Positions 1 through 61,414 of a stretch of 64,000 nucleotides of DNA are shown in pieces. Origin of the DNA: Escherichia coli (GTDB lineage Bacteria > Pseudomonadota > Gammaproteobacteria > Enterobacterales > Enterobacteriaceae). The notes beneath the pieces are model-generated. The model had not been told where the DNA came from and searched no databases. It saw only the letters and a program-made list of their open reading frames with translations. Both the position numbers and the translations under genes were made by a program. The stretch is from NCBI RefSeq assembly GCF_003334785.1, contig NZ_QOWV01000012.1; one strand, 5' to 3'. The stretch's first letter is position 1; each line of letters begins with the position of its first letter.

Positions 1-536
1 AAGAGAAGTAGTTGGTGATGATGGCGCTACCGCTGGTTTGATATGCGGCGAAAATCACTTTATCGCGTTCGGTAATTTCACCTTCCTGCGCCAGCTCTTT
101 GGTCATACCGGCGGCGGCATCCGTGTTTTGCAGGTTAGCGATCAGCGCCAGCGAGCAGATCCCTGGAATGCCCAACAACGGTTTTAGCACAGGTGTCATT
201 AACTGCTGCGCGGCGCGTAATCCACCAAGACCATCGGTAATTGAAATAATCCCCAGAGAGAGAATGACTGACGGTGCCAGCTCCAGCGCAAAGAGAAAGC
301 CATCTTTAGCCCCCGCGCCACCCGCCCCGCGAAATGAGGTGGTGGCTCCATTCGCACCAGGCAGTTGCCCAAACGATCCGTTCAGAACGGAAAAATCAAA
401 AACGCGCCACCAACTGTCTGTCCCGGAAAAAACACCGGAAAAAAAGATTATGGTGAGAAAAAAAGCCAGATACCCTTTAATGCCCACTTTTTCTGTCGCC
501 AGCTCCCCGGCTACAGCATCCCCTTGTTGTGTCATA
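1..536 (-). CDS. yjiH: Inner-membrane protein YjiH, N-terminal part; gene runs off the window start (3' end not in window)
   Basis: Minus-strand reading frame open from the ATG at 536 to position 1 with no stop; translation begins MTQQGDAVAGELATEKVGIKGYLAFFLTIIFFSG, hydrophobic membrane-protein character. The plus-strand ORF 99-575 in the track is its antisense shadow. Confidence 0.7.
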
Positions 537-784
537 ACAATCCCCATTGTTTTTTTGTGTTTGTGTGTTGCTTGAGCCAGGAAAATTCCTGGAGCGGAAA
601 AACCTTATCAGCCATGTGGGTATGGGGAAAATGCAAGTATGTTTCTGGCTATGCGTTTTTTGCATAGCGGAAAAATTACGCTGTGTGGAAAAGGCTCTGC
701 GCAGGATTGAGTTGCAGAAAATTCATAAACCCAGTGACAATGACATCAGTAAATAAAAACAGAAAATCCAGGGACGAAAACGAG

Positions 785-1339
785 ATGGCAAAGTACAACG
801 AAAAAGAGCTGGCGGATACGAGCAAGTTTTTAAGTTTTGTCCTCCGACACAAACCGGAGGCGATTGGTATCGTACTTGACCGTGAAGGATGGGCGGATAT
901 CGATAAGCTTATACTCTGTGCCCAAAAAGCGGGCAAGCGGTTAACCCGTGCATTGCTGGATACCGTGGTCGCTACCAGTGATAAAAAACGTTTTAGTTAT
1001 TCCAGTGATGGTAGGTGCATCCGCGCGGTTCAGGGGCATTCGACTTCGCAGGTCGCTATTTCCTTTGTCGAAAAAACACCGCCACAGTTTCTCTACCACG
1101 GTACGGCAAGCCGTTTCCTTGATGAGATAAAAAAACAGGGGCTGATTGCAGGGGATCGTCATTACGTGCATCTCTCTGCTGATGAAGCAACGGCACGCAA
1201 AGTGGGAGCAAGACACGGATCGCCGGTTATCTTAACCGTCAAAGCACAGGAAATGGCGAAACGAGGTATCCCTTTCTGGCAAGCGGAAAACGGAGTCTGG
1301 CTGACATCAACGGTTGCGGTCGAATTTCTTGAGTGGTAA
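785..1339 (+). CDS. kptA: RNA 2'-phosphotransferase (Tpt1/KptA family)
   Basis: ORF 683-1339; internal ATG at 785 gives 184 aa starting [43 protein letters not shown], which matches KptA as I remember it. Confidence 0.85.
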
Positions 1340-1351
1340 GGGAAACACTCC

Positions 1352-2530
1352 TCATGAAGTGACCACTTGCAGCTTAAATAATTGTACTGTGCTGATAAGC
1401 GCAGCAATAAACAACGCCGCCGCGCCGCAGAGAGTGGCGCCGGCAAGCGCCGATGTTCCATTGCCGAGCATACTGGTCAGCGCCGGGCCGAGGATTTGTC
1501 CAATGCCGTAAATGAGCGTCACAAAGCCTAAAAGATTGAGATTTCCCGGAACGCTCAGTTGGCGGGCGATAGTCATCACCAGAGATGTCGTGCCCATAAA
1601 GGTACCGCCAAAACCGATACTACTAATGATAAGCAAGAGAGGAGAGTCGCTGGCGAGAGTAAGCAGCACACTGATAGCCTGCACCAGCAAATTCGCCGTC
1701 AGGCAAGGCAAAGCCCCCCAACGTTTTGCTGCCCATAGCCAGCCAAAGCAGCCTGGCACAATTGATAAGCCGACTAACGTCCAGAGATGGGCGGTTAACA
1801 ATGGTGAGCCTGCATCTTTCGCCATGAGCGGCAGGTAAGTCGCGACGATGATATAACCAAATCCCGCCAGGCCGTACAGAATAGCCAGTAACCACCAGCT
1901 CATTATCTGTTGCTCCGTTTTTGCCAATGGCATTGGTGCGATGGCGTGTTTTTTCGAGGGCATTAAAAGCGTAAGTGCAATCAGCATCATGCCAGAAAGC
2001 GCCCCGGCGCCTTGCCATAACGTTTGCGAGGATAAGGCAAAATGCAGGCCTGCCAGAACATATTCGTTGCCCAGTGCAATGCCAATGCCAACGCCAGAAA
2101 ACAAAGCTGCCAGCACAAAAGGATGGCGCGTGTGCTGCATAATCAGCGTCGAACCAAAAATCAGCATACCGGCGCTGGCGACACCCGCCAGGAAGCGAAT
2201 CAATAACACCAGAATAAATGGCGGCAACCATGCCATTGCGAGGATCAACAACCCGCTCGCCAGGGCAGAAACCAACAGAAATGGGCGCAGGCGCGACGGC
2301 TGGTGAAATGCGCCAAACGAAAATAGCAGACTGCCAGCCAGATACCCCGCATAGTTGCCGCTGGCAATCCACGAGAGCTGGCTAAATGAAAACGCCCCTT
2401 CCGCCATCATGACGGGCAACATAGGCGTATAAAGGAAGCGACCTAATCCCATACCTAAGGTCAGAACCAGCATCCCGAAAAGCGCGGTGCTGAAAGAAAA
2501 GCGTTCTACGGGATGCGAGGACGAAGGCAT
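1352..2530 (-). CDS. yjiJ: MFS-type membrane transporter YjiJ (392 aa)
   Basis: 392-aa ORF, strongly hydrophobic with many predicted TM segments; position between kptA and yjiK as in E. coli. Confidence 0.8.
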
Positions 2531-2597
2531 GTTTAACCTTGTATGTCATTTTTGTTGTTAACAAGTTAATAACAAAAAGGTGAAATATGCCAGCCTG

Positions 2598-5705
<3,108 letters not shown>

Positions 5706-5820
5706 GATTTTCCTTCCCCGTACCACGGGAGATAATGAAAAGAGGCCACATTATTACCATTCTTTTAGTGTGGTTTATTTGATCTCTCTCGCGGTTAGCC
5801 ACTTAGTTTTTCATGGATTT

Positions 5821-7101
5821 CTAAAAATTGCCGAGGGGGAACAAGGCCGGTAGCTGCGACAGCAAATATAAAATTAGCCCAATACAACCGCCGACCAGCG
5901 TACCGTTGACACGGATAAACTGCAGATCTTTGCCGATATTTAACTCGATTTGCCGCGACATATCCCGCGCATCCCAGCTTTTTACCGTGTCGCTGATATG
6001 GCGCGTCAGGAATGCGGAAAACTCAGGCGCGACGCGGTGCGCGGCTTGTTCCAGATGACCATTTAACGACGCCCGCAAGGCATCATCGGCAATTAACGTT
6101 TCGCCAAACCATTGACCCGCCCGCGCGATACGTTCTTTCACACGAGAATCTTCACTGTTGATATCCACTTTCAGCCATTCCCGTAAATCCCCCCACAATT
6201 CACTGAGATAGCGGTTAAAAGCTTCATCTTCTTTCAGATAACTTTTTACGGCATCGGCTCGCGCTGCCATTTCAGGATCGTTTTTCAACTTGTCGATCAG
6301 GGCAAAGGTGGCGCGATCAAATGCATGGCGGATCTGATGCGCACGATCGCGGCTGATATCATCAAGCAAAGAATTCACCGCGTCAGAAACCAACTCCGCG
6401 CTATGTTCGCCCAGCCATTCAGTAGGCAAAATTTTGGCTTTCAGCGGATGCTCGCTCTCCAGCCAGCGAACAATTTGCTGGGCAATAAACTTGCGCGATT
6501 TATCGCGCTGGAGAAGGGCGATCAACTGTGCGATCAGCGTATCCAGCAGCACCTGATGACGATTGTTTTTGGTCATACTCTCCAGCATCAACGCACTGGT
6601 TCCGGAAAGATCGACCTTATCAATCGCCCGATGGACCGCGCGCTTAAGCAGGCGCTGAATACGCGCATCATCGGTCAGTTCAAGAAAACCGCTCATGATC
6701 TGCAACAGATGCTGACCAACGCGGCGGGCGTTCTCCGGCTGACTAAACCAGTTGCCAATCAACAACGCCGGTTCGTGACGTCGAATCAATGCCACCAGCG
6801 ACTGGGTATCGAGAAATTTTTCCTGCACGAACTGACCGAGATTTTCGCCAATCCGGTCTTTATTACGCGGGATAATCGCCGTATGACGAGAAATGATCGG
6901 AATCGGCACGCGGCGAAACAGCGCCACCACCGCAAACCAGTCCGCCAGCGCGCCGACCATCGCCGCTTCAGCAATCGCCTTCACGCCGCTCACCCAAAAA
7001 TTGGGCGGCAAAAACAGCGTAACGACAAAGGTAGCAGCGGCGATAAGCAGTAAAGAGAGCGCCAACATTTTGGCGCGTCTGAGTTCAATGAGTTTATTCA
7101 T
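5821..7101 (-). CDS. yjiN: DUF445-family inner-membrane protein YjiN
   Basis: 426-aa ORF with N-terminal TM helices, conserved synteny between yjiM and mdtM. Confidence 0.75.
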
Positions 7102-7141
7102 AACGTTAAGAATAGAGCCTGACGGCAGGATCGCGCAAAAA

Positions 7142-8374
7142 TCACCGCTCCTCCGCCAGCTCGGCAGCCTGATGTTGGCGCACGCGATTGAGCAATCCTG
7201 CCAGGGTGAAAACGACGATAACGCCCGCCACGACGGCTAACAGATGAAACGGCAAGCGACCGCCGTTAAACCACAGCCAGCGGCCGATTTCGACCGAGAC
7301 AGACATCACCATCAGGATCACCATATTCAGCGATGCGGAGACGGTCCCTTTCGGTAAGTTATTGGAAAAAAGCGTAAAGCGGAATAAGGTCGGGAAGATC
7401 AAACCAATCCCGAAAGCATACAGACTGGTGCCCAGCACCGACCACAGCCAGACGTGCGGTGACAGCAGATTGCCGATAATCAACAGCGCGAGGCCGACCA
7501 GTTGAATGGGTACGGCACGCCAGATAAAGCGCGGTTCGGTCGGATCTTTAACGAAACGCGCCACGATGGCATTCGCGACAATCACCGCGCCGAACACCGG
7601 AACCTGTGTCCAGGCGAACTGCGAAGTTGTTAAGCCGCCCGCGTCGATCAGGATCACCGGCGAGACAGCCACCCAACTCATCATTGGGATATAGCTTAAA
7701 GAGATGGTTGCTGCGCCAAAGAGGAACAGCCGATTGCAAAAGACATTACGAAAATCGCGCAAGACGCTTTTGGCGCTAAATGGAACCGCGCCGCGCTTCA
7801 CCGTCTCTGGCATCGCCAGCAGTAAGCCAACAAATGAGATAAAACCCATAACCGCAATGATGGCAAAAAGGACTTTCCAGTGCACAAAGTGCATCAGAGC
7901 TGCGCCGGAAAGCGGGCCAATAATCGGCGCAATCAGTACGATGGAGGTGATAATCGCCATCAACTTAATCCCTTTTGTCTGTCCGAACGCCTCCTGCACC
8001 GTGACATAACCAACGGTAGCAATAAAACAGATACTGGTGCCCTGAATTGCACGCGCGATAAGAAACTGTGTCATAGACGTGGTGAACATTGTCGCAGCGC
8101 AGGCAAGGGTAAATATTAGCGCCCCGGTAATCAGCACCGGCCTGCGGCCAATCCTGTCGGAAAGTGGCCCCAGCAGCCACTGCAACGCCATACCGCCAGC
8201 GAGATAGAGACTGACGGCTGCCGGGGCCAGACTGACATCGGCATTAAAATCACGGACCACATTAATGATCCCCGGCTGGATCAGATCCGTCGACAGGTAC
8301 GCGGCAAAGTCATACAAAATCAACGCCATCGGGAAAAACAGCGTGGCGGCATGGCGGGCAAAAAAACGTGGCAT
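7142..8374 (-). CDS. mdtM: MFS multidrug efflux transporter MdtM
   Basis: ORF 7142-8383; ATG at 8374 gives 410 aa starting [26 protein letters not shown]; 12-TM MFS pattern. Confidence 0.85.
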
Positions 8375-8840
8375 AACAAACAACTCCTTGTCCGGAGAAC
8401 CCCAATGGGGAAAACGAAATTCAATACCGTCGGTAATGACGAAAGGCAGGCGAGAAGGACAAATGTACTGAATTTCATGTAATCAACCACTCTGCCTGTG
8501 AACACACAGACAGAGAAATACCTTCTGATTCCAGGTCAGAATGTATAACGATTACAAATAGTCATCAGCACATTACACCTCTTGAATTGATGGGTTGCAT
8601 AGAAAATATACACCTTAAGTGTAATTAAAATTTGCGGTTAATCAAAAGAGCGCGGTGGAAAGGGGAATATCTGCCGGGTACAGGAAATGTAAAACGCGAG
8701 CCTGTTTCCGGAAAAATGTATCGTTTGCAGACGAACAAAAATAGCCTGGAAAGCGCCTCGGGGAACGAGAAATTGCCGGGTGAGAATGGTTTTGTTAGTC
8801 GCTAAAGTCGGGCCATCTTATCAACAGGTGACGGATCGCC

Positions 8841-9785
8841 ATGACAAACTTCACGACCAGCACGCCGCATGACGCATTGTTTAAATCTTTTCTCACGCAT
8901 CCGGATACCGCGCGGGATTTTATGGAGATCCACTTACCTAAAGATTTACGTGAACTGTGCGATCTCGACAGCTTAAAACTTGAATCCGCCAGCTTTGTCG
9001 ATGAAAAATTGCGGGCGCTACATTCCGATATTCTGTGGTCGGTAAAGACCCGCGAAGGCGATGGCTATATTTATGTGGTGATTGAACATCAGAGCCGCGA
9101 GGATATTCATATGGCCTTTCGCCTGATGCGCTATTCTATGGCGGTGATGCAGCGCCATATCGAGCATGATAAACGCCAGCCGCTACCGCTGGTCATCCCG
9201 ATGCTGTTTTATCACGGTAGCCGTAGTCCTTACCCCTGGTCCCTGTGCTGGCTGGACGAATTTGCCGACCCGACTACCGCACGGAAAGTTTATACCGCCG
9301 CGTTCCCGCTGGTGGATGTCACTGTCGTGCCAGACGACGAGATTGTGCAGCACCGCAGAGTCGCTCTGTTGGAGTTGATCCAAAAGCATATTCGCCAGCG
9401 CGATCTGATGGAGCTTATCGATCAACTGGCAGTATTACTGGTTACAGGGTGCGCTAATGACAGCCAGATAACCGCGCTGTTAAATTACATTTTACTGACT
9501 GGCGATGAAGCGCGTTTTAAGGCGTTTATCAGCGAACTTACCAGGCGAATGCCACACCACAGGGAGCGAATAATGACAATTGCAGAGCGAATTCATAATG
9601 ATGGATGGCTGTTGGGAAGGGAGAAAGGGAAAGAAGAAGGGGAACAGCGCCTCCTCCGATTGTTGTTGCAGAATGGGGCAGATCCTGAATGGATACAAAA
9701 GATTACCGGACTTTCGGCAGAGCAAATGCAGGCATTAGAGCAGCCCTTGCCTGAAAGCAAGCGCGAACCATGGATCGAATACTAA
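8841..9785 (+). CDS. rpnD: Recombination-promoting nuclease RpnD (Rpn/YhgA-like, PDDEXK_7 family), intact
   Basis: 314-aa ORF; N-terminal HDALFKSFL...[10 protein letters not shown] motif characteristic of Rpn/transposase_31 proteins; location corresponds to yjiP/yjiQ. Confidence 0.75.
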
Positions 9786-11781: not shown

Positions 11782-12277
11782 GGGGGGATATAAATTTATA
11801 TAATAAAACGTTTTTATGTTTTTAAATTAAGTTATAAAAATTTTCCCGAGACTATTCATCAATAGGTATGGAGTGTACAGGAATATCTTCTTCACTAACC
11901 TCTTTAAACTCATGTCGATAATGGTCAAAAAACGCACAGTGATTACTTGTGTTTTTTGACTGACTTTACAACTCTCATTATTCGCTATTGTGAAGTTTCT
12001 CTAATTGTTTTATATCCTGGAAAGTTAAATGTTAGTTACTGCATACTTTTTTATTTTTTGAGATTTATTTTCATTTGAAATTATAAAGTCAGGTGATAAA
12101 TGAGTTGTGATTAATAGATAGTTGATATCATTTTTATCTAAAATTGATTTATGGTGCCGACCTGAAAAATTAGCTATTGCCGCCTGATTAATTATACGAT
12201 ATTTTTAAAGGTTTTCTTTCAAATTAGAAATATTCTGGGGTTTTGTTTTTGTATCTTTTATCTCTAAGGAGCTTGCT

Positions 12278-15043
12278 TTGGGTCAATCAGAATACATTTC
12301 ATGGGTAAAATGTACTTCCTGGCTAAGTAACTTTGTGAATCTTAGAGGGTTGAGACAACCGGATGGCCGTCCTCTTTATGAATATCATGCAACCAATGAT
12401 GAATATAACCAATTAACGCAGCTACTCCGTGCAGTCGGTCAATCACAATCTAATATATGTAATAAGGACTTTGCTGCCTGTTTTGTTCTTTTTTGCTCTG
12501 AGTGGTACCGCAGGGATTATGAACGGCAATGCGGATGGACGTGGGACCCTATATATAAAAAAATAGGGATTTCATTTACCGCCACAGAGCTTGGTACCAT
12601 CGTACCGAAAGGGATGGACGATTACTGGCTGCGCCCAATTCGATTTTATGAATCTGAACGACGCAATTTTCTCGGAACATTATTCAGTGAAGGTGGTTTA
12701 CCTTTCCGGTTACTCAAAGAATCAGACAGTCGCTTTCTGGCTGTTTTCTCCAGGATCCTTGGACAATATGAGCAAGCAAAGCAGTCAGGTTTTTCTGCCC
12801 TTTCGCTGGCAAGAGCCGTCATAGAAAAATTAGCGCTGCCAACTGTTTTTAGCGAAGATACTTCTGTAGAACTTATCAGTCATATGGCTGATAACCTCAA
12901 TTCCTTAGTACTTACTCACAACCTAATAAATCACAAAGAACCAGTACAACAGCTTGATAAGGTTCACCCTACCTGGCGAAGCGAGTTTCCAATACCGTTA
13001 GATGATGAAACAGGAACGCATTTTTTGAATGGACTGCTATGCGCAGCCTCTGTAGAGGCTAAGCCTCGACTACAAAAAAATAAGAGTACGCGTTGCCAAT
13101 TCTATTGGTCAGAAAAGCATCCAGATGAGCTTAGGGCGATAGTATCTCTCCCTGACGAAGTTTCCTTTCCTGTAACAAGCGAGCCGTCAACTACGCGCTT
13201 TGAACTTGCCATTTGTGAAGATGGTGAGGAAGTCTCTGGCCTTGGGCCAGCTTATGCTTCCCTGGAAAACAGACAGGCAACAGTTCGATTACGTAAAAGC
13301 GAAGTGAGATTTGTCAGGCAAAATCCATCGGCAGGTTTGTCGTTAGTGGCTCGTGCTGGAGGGATGATTGTTGGGAGCATTAAACTTGATGACAGTGAAA
13401 TTGCCATTGGTGAGGTGCCGTTAACCTTCATCGTTGATGCAGATCAATGGCTGTTACAGGGACAGGCCTCCTGTAGTGTGCAAAGCAGCGATGTTCTGAT
13501 TGTGCTCCCTCGGGACAATAGTACTGTTGCTGGTTTTGATGGCCAATCGAGTGCAGTAAACGTATTAGGACTTGTCGCTATGACTCTGGCGGTTGCTCTG
13601 CGTCAGGCGCTAGCGGGCGTTCTGGGTATCTCCGGCGCAGAACTCGGCTATTCTGTACGCCCGGTCAGACTGGAGGATGGGCAATCGGTATTAGCCGTTC
13701 AGCTTTATGATGTGATCAGCGGTGGTGCAGGTTTTGCCTCCAGCGCACCGGTACACATTGAAGCTATTTTGCAGGGAATGGTGAAACAGTTAGGTTGCCG
13801 CCATTGTGATACTGCATGTAGTGAATGCCTGCTTGATTCCCAGACTCGCCACGATCACGATTTGCTGGATCGCAAAGCGGCGCTGGCCTGGCTTGGCGAT
13901 GACTTCACGTATTACATCGGTTTACCGGATGAAGAGACATTCTCGCTGCCGGATGCCCGCTACTGCCCTGGCGCTATTGGCGATACGATTCGCCGGGCGA
14001 TTAACGAAGGCGCTGAAAAGCTCACCCTGTGGATGACCGGCGCGCCCAATGAGTGGGATTTATACGCCCGTCAGTTCCGCGCGGCGGTTCAGAGCTATCG
14101 GCTAAAAGACAACGTCGAGGTCGATCTTGTTATACCTGCGGGAGTGGATGACCCGGATCTGTTGTATGAACTATCGCAATTTACTGCGCTGGGTGTGCGG
14201 CTGTGCCATGTTGAACAGGATCTGCAATTGCCGATCGTTGCCCAGGTTACCTTTGCCGATCGCGTGATGACGCTGGCTTCTCGCAGCCAGCAGGCAACGA
14301 TTCCGGGGCCGGAGTGGCACCTGAATGACGAACTGGTGGTGCGTAGTCTCGGTTATAAAACGGTAGAACTGAACGAGTTTATTCTGCCGGCTAAAGCCGC
14401 CAACGCTGTCGAGCGGGTCAAAGACATTCAGATCCACAAACAGTTGAATGGACCACTTTCGCAGTTTGGACAACGCTTCTGGGACGTGCTGTTTAACGAC
14501 CATGAAGAAGCACAGTCACTGATGAATAACACGCGAATTACCGGCGTTCACTATACCGATCGCTATCTGCAAAACCCGGTTGCGCTGGCGTTGTTGGGAT
14601 CAATTCTGAGACCGCTAAAAACAAAGCTGACCGATGGCGCTGAAGTGGCGCTGGATACGCTGTTTAAAGATAAAGATCGCCCCGGTAACCGGCCTTTCCA
14701 TGACTGGATGAGCATAGCGGATTTTCAGGATTTCGCTGATCAGTGGTTTGCTGCTGCGCTGGGCAGGCCGATAGAACTAACGGTGTTCGACTCGCCGCGC
14801 GATATCCCTCACCATCGTAAACTGACGGTGACTTTTGAGGATGGTCAGGTTTTGAAGATCCGCTTCGATCAGGGGATGGGCTACTGGCGTATCAACTTTG
14901 CATCGCAATGGCATTACTTTGACTTCCGCGATGACGTTTCTTTCCAGTTAGTCAAAATGGCTCAGGCCTGCAATGAAGGAAATGTGGCCAACAGCGAAGA
15001 GAGCTGGGCAACGGATGTGCTGGTGGAGGTGAGCGCCTCCTGA
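12278..15043 (+). CDS. Uncharacterised 921-aa protein in the immigration-control region; candidate single-gene defence / anti-MGE factor, function unknown
   Basis: Uninterrupted 2766-nt ORF; TTG start at 12278 preceded by AAGGAG 8 nt upstream; 0.5-kb AT-rich leader; intrinsic terminator immediately after the stop; CxxCx3CxxC motif at aa 507-517; no Walker A found by eye. It occupies the slot where K-12 has yjiT/yjiV/mcrC/mcrB. Confidence 0.7.
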
Positions 15044-15052
15044 TGATGTGCC

Positions 15053-15081
15053 GCTCCCGATGTGGTGTCGGGAGCGTTTTT
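15053..15081 (+). terminator. Rho-independent terminator after the 921-aa ORF
   Basis: gctcccga-tgtggtg-tcgggagc hairpin followed by gttttt, 10 nt after the TGA at 15041-15043. Confidence 0.6.
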
Positions 15082-15085
15082 CCAT

Positions 15086-15427
15086 TCAGGCAACTTTCTG
15101 TTTACCGGCAATCACCCCAATAAATTCCTGCACCTGCTTTTGTTTACGCGCCGACAGCTTGCACACCCTGCGCAGCGACTGCATCAGTTCGCTCTCTTCG
15201 GCGGCGGGTGGTTGAGCGGTGAGGACGATGCAGCCTTCCATCACTTTGACATCTACCGCCGTGCCGGTGGCAAAACCGGCGGCTTCCAGCCACTGACCTT
15301 TCAGGGTGATGGCGGGAATATGCGCGTGATCCGGGTAGCGGCTCGCATAACCGACGGTGACATGACGGTTATTTGCCGGAGAGACTTCTGCTTCGAACGG
15401 TTGTGCAATAGAATACGTGTCAGTCAT
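15086..15427 (-). CDS. symE: SOS-induced toxin-like protein SymE (type I toxin, AbrB/SpoVT fold)
   Basis: ORF 15086-15484; ATG at 15427 gives 113 aa starting [52 protein letters not shown], matching SymE. Confidence 0.85.
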
Positions 15428-15497
15428 AACTGCTATTCTCCGATAATAGTGATTGTGATGAGCGGTGCGGGTGTGTTGGCGCACATCCGCACCGCGC
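15421..15497 (+). ncRNA. symR: SymR antisense sRNA (cis-encoded antitoxin RNA of symE), approximate ends
   Basis: Established knowledge: SymR (~77 nt) is transcribed antisense across the symE RBS/start from a promoter inside symE. Sequence shows a TAGAAT -10 at 15409-15414 on the plus strand and a 9-bp stem hairpin (gcggtgcgg ... ccgcaccgc) ending at 15496. Confidence 0.45.
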
Positions 15498-15503
15498 TAA
15501 ATA

Positions 15504-15519
15504 CCTGGATATATCATCA
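15504..15519. promoter_or_regulatory. Candidate LexA box in the symE promoter
   Basis: CTGGATATATCATCAG fits CTG-N10-CAG with an AT-rich core, 77-92 nt upstream of the symE start; symE is known to be LexA-repressed. Confidence 0.45.
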
Positions 15520-15607
15520 GTAAATACAGGGAAAGTCCAGCTAAAAATAGAATAAAATGGTCAGTTCCTGGAATGATTTAAATATATTTATGTGAGTTAT
15601 GATTGGC

Positions 15608-15642
15608 GTGAAATAATAAAAGGCGCACCGGAAAGGTGCGCC
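15608..15642 (-). terminator. Rho-independent terminator of the hsdMS operon
   Basis: Minus strand: ggcgcacc-tttcc-ggtgcgcc hairpin followed by a T-rich run, just downstream of the hsdS stop. Confidence 0.6.
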
Positions 15643-15654
15643 AGAAAATAATGA

Positions 15655-16968
15655 TCAGGATTTTTTACGCGAGGCTTTTTTACCTCCGCTGGCTGCGCGT
15701 TCAGCTTTGATTTTTTCCAGCAACGCGGCGGCGCTGTTTTCTCCGCTGATTAATTCCGGGTTTTCGGCCCGCCACTGGGCGGTGAGTTCACCACGGAACG
15801 CTTTTGCCAGGATGGATTGCGTCAGGTTGTTAACGCGGGCTAAGGCGTTGTTGACCTGTTTTTCTATGGTGTCTGCGTAGGCGAAGAGCTGCTCGACGCG
15901 GCGAACGATTTCGTGTTGTTCGGGGAGTGGAGGAACAGTTATTGGGTATGCAATTAATTTCTGTGCATTAATATTTGATTGACTGACCCCATCAGATTTT
16001 ACTGAGTAGCAATATTGCCTCCCCAAAATGCTATTTAAATGGTAGTTAAGATAGTCAGGGTTTAAATCAGGTAAACATTGAACCCTAATCAAATAACCTG
16101 CATAAATAGCTGGTTGCTCTGATTTATATATGGCTGTTTTCCCGACAAGTTCAGGACTATTTGTACGATTGAATAATACATCATTGTACTCAAGTTTATA
16201 CTTTTCAATTTCTATGGTATCTGAAGTATAGACTAGATCCGTCCAGTCCAATTTTCCGCCCTGAAGATTGCCCATTCTTAATACAGGAATGAGTCCTTCT
16301 TTATTAGACTTAGATGACGTTCCATAACTTGGTTTTTTTATAAATTCCCCAAGTTTGCCTTCTATCCACCCAGACAGGCTCGAATTATCTCTCCAGTCTT
16401 CAGTTAGTTTTCCACTTACCGCGGCACCCAGCACCGCCTGACGAAAACGTTTCAGGATTTGTGGGATTTGCTCAAGACGTGCTTTGGTGCTCTCTACCTG
16501 CGCCAGCAGCGTATCGAGTTTTTCAGCGATGATTTTTTGTTCTGAAATTGGAGGAAGTTGTATTTCCCAAGCCTCCATTCCAGCTTTGGTAATATGTGGC
16601 ATTGCCACGCCGTGAGCCGATGCTTTAAGTGCCTCTGTAATATTCAATAATGCATAATAAGCAAATTGCTTATTAAGTGCAGGGGATGTTTCAATCTTCC
16701 AAATATGGTAGTGATAAATTAGTTTATGATCCCACTTCGACCAATATGGACCAAATGTTGCTGACCAAGCATATAGGAGATCATTTTTATAGCAATATTT
16801 ATCTTCCTGTAGCTCTAAGTTGGAATAAAACCATTTATTCCCTCCATTCAAATTTTGAATTCTGAGAATAGGAACACCTTCTGTGAGCATTTCTTCTTTC
16901 TTATATGCTCTGCCATTGATGAGGGTCAAAACATCACCCAACTGGCATATTTGCCAATTTTTACTCAT
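15655..16968 (-). CDS. hsdS: Type I restriction-modification specificity subunit HsdS (type IA / EcoKI family frame, non-EcoKI target-recognition domains)
   Basis: 437-aa ORF; central (LPPISEQKIIAEKLDTLLAQVESTKARLEQIPQILKRFRQAVL) and C-terminal (EQHEIVRRVEQLFAYADTIEKQVNNALARVNNLTQSILAKAFRGELTAQWRAENP) conserved regions match the EcoKI family; the two variable domains differ; ATGA overlap with hsdM. Confidence 0.9.
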   Translation of the reverse strand: MSKNWQICQLGDVLTLINGRAYKKEEMLTEGVPILRIQNLNGGNKWFYSNLELQEDKYCYKNDLLYAWSATFGPYWSKWDHKLIYHYHIWKIETSPALNKQFAYYALLNITEALKASAHGVAMPHITKAGMEAWEIQLPPISEQKIIAEKLDTLLAQVESTKARLEQIPQILKRFRQAVLGAAVSGKLTEDWRDNSSLSGWIEGKLGEFIKKPSYGTSSKSNKEGLIPVLRMGNLQGGKLDWTDLVYTSDTIEIEKYKLEYNDVLFNRTNSPELVGKTAIYKSEQPAIYAGYLIRVQCLPDLNPDYLNYHLNSILGRQYCYSVKSDGVSQSNINAQKLIAYPITVPPLPEQHEIVRRVEQLFAYADTIEKQVNNALARVNNLTQSILAKAFRGELTAQWRAENPELISGENSAAALLEKIKAERAASGGKKASRKKS

Positions 16969-52908: not shown

Positions 52909-52995
52909 TGGTGCGAGGGGGGGGACTTGAACCCCCACGTCCGTAAGGACACTAACACCTGAAGCTAGCGCGTCTACCAATTCCGCCACCTTCGC
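52909..52995 (-). tRNA. leuV: tRNA-Leu (anticodon CAG), single copy
   Basis: Minus strand reads GCGAAGGTGGCGGAATTGGTAGACGCGCTAGCTTCAGGTGTTAGTGTCCTTACGGACGTGGGGGTTCAAGTCCCCCCCCTCGCACCA, 87 nt with encoded CCA; cloverleaf and long variable arm typical of tRNA-Leu. Confidence 0.9.

Positions 52996-53114: not shown

Positions 53115-53292
<178 letters not shown>

Positions 53293-60902: not shown

Positions 60903-61414
<512 letters not shown>

Follow-up and report, generated by a model that had tools for sequence, protein, structure and literature searches.

Between yjiS and symE, the immigration-control region of Escherichia coli analysed here carries a reading frame with four closely spaced cysteines, and the question raised by this locus is what the cysteine cluster represents and whether the protein that holds it still works. 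The initial annotation had regarded the cluster as the signature of a treble-clef or Zn-ribbon nucleic-acid-binding module, as found in DUF1998 or HNH-type domains, in an orphan protein. The ORF at positions 12278-15043 is the only long one at the motif site in the window (the whole stretch of DNA that was analysed, 64 kb in length); this and all other features given below lie on the plus strand. The comparisons presented here identify the cluster as the MZB zinc motif of the Druantia type III protein DruE, and they make it very probable that it is left as a relic in a non-defensive, deletion-fused ORF without the helicase motor. The motif, the role of zinc and the need for the motif in Druantia defence have already been described in structural work from 2025-2026, and it is well known that defence genes decay in the immigration-control region of E. 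coli. Little in the present result is biologically new.

The cysteine cluster and its domain

Bases 13796-13828 read TGC CGC CAT TGT GAT ACT GCA TGT AGT GAA TGC, in frame with the 12278-15043 ORF, and translate as [11 protein letters not shown], corresponding to residues 507-517 of 921. The sequence and the frame of the cluster were as initially described, and so was its proximity to an RHDHD stretch, placed within 15 residues of the motif. RHDHD occupies residues 524-528, starting seven residues past the motif, with six residues separating its Arg from the last motif Cys. The remark that the protein has few other Cys holds well mainly for the C-terminal half, in which there are three others; the whole protein contains 16 Cys (1.7%), 12 of them outside the motif. 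Residues 1-432 contain nine Cys and residues 433-921 the other seven.

The Pfam search reported a single domain in the ORF, MZB (MrfA Zn-binding, formerly DUF1998; PF09369), at residues 438-518 (positions 13589-13831), with an E value of 1.7e-8, a score of 35.5 bits and coverage of model positions 2-80 of 80. Cryo-EM structures exist for a DruE homologue (PDB 9TU7-9TUC) and for DruH (9TUD). In the alignment to chain 9tu7_Y, C507, C510, C514 and C517 corresponded to chain residues 1685, 1687, 1691 and 1694, and His525 (positions 13850-13852), the first His of RHDHD, corresponded to 1702. After subtraction of a 4-residue tag offset, these are the native residues C1681, C1683, C1687, C1690 and H1698 of EDL933 DruE. 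The four Cys have been named as the MZB zinc-binding motif of that protein; the variants C1681A/C1683A, C1687A/C1690A and C1681G/C1683G/C1687G lose phage protection, duplex unwinding requires the MZB, and H1698 forms, together with W1480, a clamp sandwiching a base of the tracking strand (bioRxiv 10.64898/2026.05.13.724758). According to Bell et al. (PMC12458937), a DUF1998 cluster of 4 cysteines is characteristic of the YprA family as a whole. The AF2 model of residues 433-921, built with a 35-sequence alignment, had a mean pLDDT of 91.8 and was consistent with the published MZB-PLD1-PLD2 architecture; its MZB region had the fold of the MrfA and DrmB DUF1998 domains. Judged by the HMM match, the ligand register, conservation and the predicted fold, the four Cys belong to an MZB/DUF1998 domain, and the initial DUF1998 guess was borne out both by the Pfam match and by the alignment with the DruE zinc ligands.

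In intact DruE, a YprA/MrfA-like SF2 helicase of Druantia type III, the MZB is made rigid by a structural Zn2+ bound at the Cys4 motif, and the MZB and the OB/Zn domain together form a lid closing over the RecA1/RecA2 motor. The aromatic residue eight positions past the last Cys (His525 here) stacks against a tracking-strand base, and in the intact protein the motif is required for duplex unwinding and phage defence. The proposed zinc module was partly right: the cluster corresponds to a Cys4 zinc site in a module that handles nucleic acid, but not to an independent Zn-ribbon DNA-binding module. Rather than standing alone, it forms a knuckle within the MZB domain, an alpha/beta domain that acts as the lid of a helicase core. 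Nor is the motif the only concrete functional hint in the protein, as two PLD-like domains come after it.

Two other readings of the cluster were weighed against this assignment. Four Cys fell within 11 residues in 1165 of 200,000 random placements of 16 Cys in 921 positions (0.6%), and such clusters were present in three other stop-free stretches of the 64-kb window, as would suit a chance or compositional feature with no metal role. Conservation refuted this reading, whose probability we put at next to nil. Among 132 cluster representatives of diverse homologues, with 25-99% identity to the window fragment, Cys occupied the four motif columns in 131, 132, 131 and 132 sequences, and the motif Cys align with experimentally observed zinc ligands. 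The first pair was spaced as CxxxC in 90 representatives, CxC in 14, CxxC in 11 and CxxxxC in 10, and the second pair was CxxC, three residues beyond the first, in nearly all the sequences in which the motif was found. The cluster is no chance feature, and its conservation is more decisive than the random-placement figure. Alternatively, the cluster and RHDHD could together make up an HNH-type or stand-alone Zn-ribbon or treble-clef nuclease or DNA-binding module of an orphan protein, and the Cys spacing with His and Asp nearby does bear a superficial likeness to HNH or Zn-finger signatures. However, no HNH profile matched the ORF in Pfam, which gave MZB only; the fold matches the DUF1998 domains of MrfA and DrmB; and the protein has strong family assignments (DruH, DruE and YjiT_fam). 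The columns of D526, H527 and D528 are variable among the 132 homologues, so RHDHD is no catalytic motif. Only its first His is semi-conserved (H in 48, F in 43 and Y in 8 of 132, that is, Phe or Tyr in 51), and this aromatic column fits a stacking residue rather than a catalytic His. An HNH or Zn-ribbon module is considered highly unlikely, and the MZB zinc motif of DruE remains the preferred reading.

Origin of the host ORF by an internal deletion

The protein was no orphan. In the PADLOC search, residues 1-437 matched positions 1-437 of 1100 of the DruH profile (E 3.5e-214), and residues 432-918 matched positions 1564-2054 of 2055, the last quarter, of the DruE profile (E 1.7e-129). NCBIfam YjiT_fam ("STY4851/ECs_5259 family protein", which is also the RefSeq name of the ORF) matched residues 15-431, and the DruH fragment matched the DruH structure 9tud with an E value of 1.1e-19. 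A PHROGs search with both halves of the ORF returned no match. The host protein joins, in frame, residues 1-432 of DruH/YjiT to residues 1626-2114 of DruE. That the ORF is a deletion chimera without the helicase had escaped the initial annotation. Its first part, the N-terminal fragment of the 1096-residue DruH, spans positions 12278-13573, and its second part ends with the two PLD-like domains, PLD1 and PLD2 (positions 13955-15040), in which the conserved residues of the pocket are retained (D761/R762/Y763 and H845/R847, numbered as in the ORF). The C-terminal domains had the PLD fold. The canonical PLD motif HxK(x)4D was absent; the sequence [11 protein letters not shown] instead has an invariant H and R (HxR), and both DRY and HxR of the pocket are invariant among the homologues. 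The MZB domain as delimited by Pfam and both PLD-like domains are complete, and were predicted with high confidence.

The ancestor of this chimera was identified in strain CT02, in which the same site between yjiS and symE is occupied by intact yjiT/druH (1096 aa) and druE, encoding a 2114-aa DEAD/DEAH helicase. The YjiS, SymE and HsdS proteins of CT02 are identical to those around the fused ORF in strain MS 124-1. In a base-by-base comparison, the window ORF was found to equal the 9,648-bp operon of CT02 minus 6,882 bp. These 6,882 bp amount to 2,294 codons, which places the deletion in frame, as is expected of one random deletion in three. The junction lies at positions 13572-13573 and shows a 2-bp microhomology (TT at both breakpoints), typical of illegitimate recombination; the left breakpoint follows DruH codon 432 (Leu432), and the right one precedes DruE codon 1626 (Val1626). 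Outside the deletion, the window ORF differed from CT02 by one nucleotide in 2,766 nt, a private substitution (nt 554 C>T, S185L) absent from both CT02 and MS 124-1, and the MS 124-1 allele was identical to the CT02 ancestor across the 2,766 nt. The flanks of the window matched CT02 at 3799 of 3800 and 9999 of 10000 positions. Given these flanks and the one substitution in the ORF, the deletion is, on the evidence of sequence identity, very recent.

The loss covers residues 433-1096 of DruH, the spacer between the two genes and residues 1-1625 of DruE. RecA1/RecA2, dZBD, DBD, DD, eWH and OBZ are all missing from the remnant, among them the motor, the OB/Zn domain and the domains for DNA-duplex binding and dimerisation, and the structural OB-CON-MZB canopy has lost its N-terminal portion. 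The Cys pairs at 459-501, 599, 1429-1453 and 1541 (CT02 numbering) were deleted, leaving only those at 1700/1707. DruE has thereby lost four of its five zinc motifs; the one in the window corresponds to C1700, C1703, C1707 and C1710 of the uninterrupted protein in CT02. Neither DruH nor DruE is complete, and the locus is therefore no longer a Druantia type III system, although the order and orientation of druH directly upstream of druE have been kept in the one fused ORF. A YprA-like SF2 helicase core, encoded in CT02, is found neither in the ORF nor next to it; the neighbours at the window locus are yjiS and symE, neither of them a helicase partner. The wider gene order is that of the immigration-control region, namely yjiR, yjiS, the ORF, symE/symR, hsdS, hsdM, hsdR and mrr.

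The native Shine-Dalgarno sequence, start codon and terminator were kept. The Shine-Dalgarno sequence, AAGGAG (positions 12266-12271), stands 6 nt 5' of the TTG start (12278-12280), and the PGAP annotation places the identical TTG start in MS 124-1 and in CT02. A terminator-like hairpin followed by a T run is located downstream of the ORF (positions 15052-15076). As the ORF is intact and in frame and has kept a strong Shine-Dalgarno sequence and terminator, it may well be expressed, although the region upstream of it is rich in A and T and may be subject to silencing by H-NS. The remnant may still fold, and if it does, the zinc site may form. The 6,882-bp in-frame deletion removed both RecA domains and the four other zinc motifs and joined the remaining halves as one 921-aa ORF; on the reading proposed here, the product would be a very recent pseudogene-like remnant, open only by the chance of an in-frame deletion.

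Spread of the allele and its present function

Among 5,426 complete E. coli genomes, 673 contained any part of the locus, and no more than 232 of these 673 had kept at least 80% of it. The window junction was present in 21 complete genomes. Thirteen of these junction carriers have in common an IS3 insertion 11 nt past the junction, the allele of NCTC9038 carries an ISEc52 insertion, and an IS600/IS30 insertion at approximately nt 738 of the allele was found in NCTC9100 and in the genome of a chicken isolate, which is also one of the 13 IS3 carriers. Since the 13 genomes with the same IS3 insertion look like one clonal group, disruption by IS elements was counted as at least three separate events, and not as 16 of 21 carriers. 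The ORF was annotated by PGAP as an intact protein in MS 124-1 and as two pseudogene pieces in strain E423. The exact 921-aa protein occurred on 551 contigs. Two variants were recorded besides, the S185L variant of the window (WP_212667808.1) on 27 contigs and another on 38; the allele is not rare, and it is common in some lineage. Other alleles of the locus show further internal deletions, and only the 3' third is kept in B/BL21. Repeated in-frame fusions (P0013, P0025, P0046) were considered as a sign of selection and rejected, because the protein search detects in-frame fusions only. With only 0-2 substitutions since the deletion, the sequences carry no signal of selection on the fused ORF in either direction.

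The activity of the remnant can be gauged from published variants. DruE(1570-2104), which extends approximately 38 residues further N-terminally than the DruE part of the window, showed no unwinding and was among the truncation variants that failed to restore protection, and the PLDs of EDL933 DruE were found to be dispensable (bioRxiv 10.64898/2026.05.13.724758). In Pseudomonas aeruginosa PaDruE, in contrast, the pocket residues DRY/HxR are needed for defence, and the PLD nuclease depends on ATP hydrolysis by the helicase, as E266Q abolishes it (bioRxiv 10.64898/2026.05.13.724313). The published studies thus disagree on the PLD activity of DruE. By analogy, the published truncations predict no phage protection by the remnant. 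Since the motor has been lost, DruE(1570-2104) is inactive and the PaDruE nuclease needs ATP hydrolysis, we infer that the ORF can neither unwind DNA nor provide Druantia defence.

These data also bear on whether the chimera works as a new protein, built of the DruH N-terminal region, the MZB remnant and the PLD1/PLD2 module. Such a protein could cleave or bind DNA without a helicase, or it could modulate another defence system or serve as its decoy. In favour of this, the frame is open, with the Shine-Dalgarno sequence, start and terminator kept; the MZB and both PLD-like domains are complete; the pocket that matters in PaDruE is invariant; and the fusion protein is found on more than 600 contigs. 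However, one third of random deletions would leave the frame open in any case, and the identity of the MS 124-1 allele with its ancestor over 2,766 nt makes the open frame uninformative on selection. The allele has been disrupted by IS elements in at least three separate events, DruE(1570-2104) showed activity neither in vitro nor in vivo, the PaDruE nuclease stops without helicase ATP hydrolysis, and EDL933 DruE does without its PLDs. A working new protein is in our judgement improbable, and so is a chimera that is expressed with a new helicase-independent role. Such a role might be that of a single-chain protein in which the Zn-stabilised MZB remnant links the PLD pocket to the DruH N-terminal region, or that of a partner that interferes with a second Druantia, Zorya or ARMADA system of the same cell. 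A recent relic without a part in defence is the most likely status of the ORF.

The result is of value for annotation. RefSeq proteins such as WP_206746689.1 and WP_212667808.1 are named as an intact 'STY4851/ECs_5259 family protein', yet they are DruH'-'DruE deletion chimeras without the helicase. Such chimeras could be miscounted by defence-system finders, and readers could take them for orphans. The intact operon of CT02 and the deleted one of MS 124-1 also provide a near-isogenic natural contrast for the Druantia III of the immigration-control region.

Comparison with known systems

The closest described counterpart is DruE of EDL933/ATCC8739 Druantia III-A (PDB 9TU7-9TUC; bioRxiv 10.64898/2026.05.13.724758 and 10.64898/2026.05.12.722862; PMC13192584), which has the homologous MZB zinc motif. 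The four Cys and the clamp His are in register, the MZB-PLD1-PLD2 order is the same, and the intact DruE of CT02 aligned with the EDL933-type DruE over residues 5-2089 with an E value of 0. In contrast to EDL933 DruE, no more than the C-terminal 489 residues of the protein are left in the window, where they are joined to a fragment of DruH, and the first Cys pair is CxxC in the window and CxC in EDL933. The two also belong to different lineages, that of the immigration-control region (yjiT) and that of O-island 172, which are set apart by their best-matching PADLOC models (PDLC00037 versus PDLC00036).

More distant likenesses were found in Bacillus subtilis MrfA/YprA (PDB 6ZNP), the founding member of Pfam MZB/DUF1998, whose fold is the one predicted here, and in DISARM DrmB (PDB 7S9W), at a sequence identity of 14-19%. 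The MrfA domain lies in cis to its helicase core and that of DrmB acts in trans with DrmA, whereas the window locus has no helicase partner.

The nearest parallel for the decay of the locus is provided by the yjiT/yjiV pseudogene fragments of K-12, situated at the same locus between yjiS and the restriction genes. In K-12, mcrBC lies downstream, which is not the case in the window. Internal deletions have worn down one and the same ancestral druH-druE operon at both loci. What K-12 retains of it are three pieces, nt 1-1509, 4527-6676 and 8861-9648 of the ancestor, so that the MZB Cys cluster (nt 8401-8433 of the ancestor) is gone there, whereas the different, single deletion of the window has spared it.

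Pocket residues and cysteine groups of the fused ORF

The part of the 921-aa druH'-'druE fusion that derives from the DruE C-terminus retains the residues of a PLD-like pocket. The D-R-Y residues (ORF aa 761-763; window 14558-14566, plus strand) and the H-x-R residues (ORF aa 845-847; window 14810-14818, plus strand) were invariant in the homologues, and their counterparts in P. aeruginosa DruE are D1917/R1918/Y1919 and H1999/R2001, respectively. The published evidence regarding the need for these domains in DruE is conflicting. Defence by the P. aeruginosa protein was reported to require D1917/R1918/Y1919 and H1999/R2001 (bioRxiv 10.64898/2026.05.13.724313), whereas two E. coli studies described the PLD domains as dispensable or as lacking HxK(x)4D (one of them bioRxiv 10.64898/2026.05.13.724758).

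Besides the Cys4 motif of the MZB domain, the ORF carries a looser second cysteine group, C61, C68, C73 and C85 (ORF aa 61-85; window 12458-12532, plus strand), located in the DruH N-terminal part. Alignment with the solved DruH homologue 9tud placed no cysteine opposite these four residues, and the group is therefore probably not a metal site. Four cysteines within 11 residues also occur in three further stretches of the window that are 100 aa or longer and contain no stop codon, one on the plus strand at about 28962 and two on the minus strand (offsets 1720 and 19239 from the start of the reverse complement).

Erosion and annotation of the druH-druE locus

In the immigration-control region, the druH-druE operon has been worn down by many differing internal deletions across E. 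coli, and at least 80% of the locus was kept in only 232 of the 673 carrier genomes. The operon is reduced to three retained pieces in K-12, and its 3' third alone remains in B/BL21. Other in-frame fusion proteins from this locus (P0013, P0025 and P0046) illustrate the variety of junctions: in P0013, DruE is joined from approximately residue 525 to approximately residue 1750, and in P0046 an internal part of DruH is joined to PLD2.

The fused ORF itself (window 12278-15043; positions 3079-5844 of the MS 124-1 locus and 379-3144 of the E423 locus) is labelled inconsistently by RefSeq. It is annotated as an intact 'STY4851/ECs_5259 family protein' in some genomes (WP_206746689.1, WP_212667808.1), while in E423 it appears as two pseudogene fragments, namely yjiT without its C-terminus and a DUF1998 protein without its N-terminus.

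Genomic surroundings of the remnant

An AT-rich stretch (11790-12600) extends from upstream of the ORF across its 5' end, with a GC content of 34% in 12000-12599 versus about 52% nearby. Such a composition would fit a horizontal origin of the DNA and a possible role of H-NS in silencing it. The upstream promoter scan returned a single sigma-70-like site, which was weak (12115-12144).

Further away, the only tRNA gene found in the 64-kb window was tRNA-Leu(CAG) (52909-52995, minus strand), near the position of which K-12 presumably carries the three-gene leuQPV cluster. Four matches to naRNA4 (CssrE, REP-type) were arranged in tandem at 60995-61376 with a spacing of 101 bp, and a fifth copy was located at 53143-53225; one naRNA4 match scored on the opposite strand as well.

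Two neighbouring loci differed from K-12. The window copy of the gene encoding an Rpn-family recombination-promoting nuclease (8841-9785; 314 aa, WP_000181156.1 in matching genomes) is intact, whereas the annotation of its K-12 counterpart shows an internal stop. Comparison of window 15043-15700 with positions 6943-9424 of the K-12 locus placed symE/symR directly after the Druantia remnant (symR RNA, 15422-15498). In K-12, mcrC-mcrB lie just downstream of the remnant, but the window lacks them.
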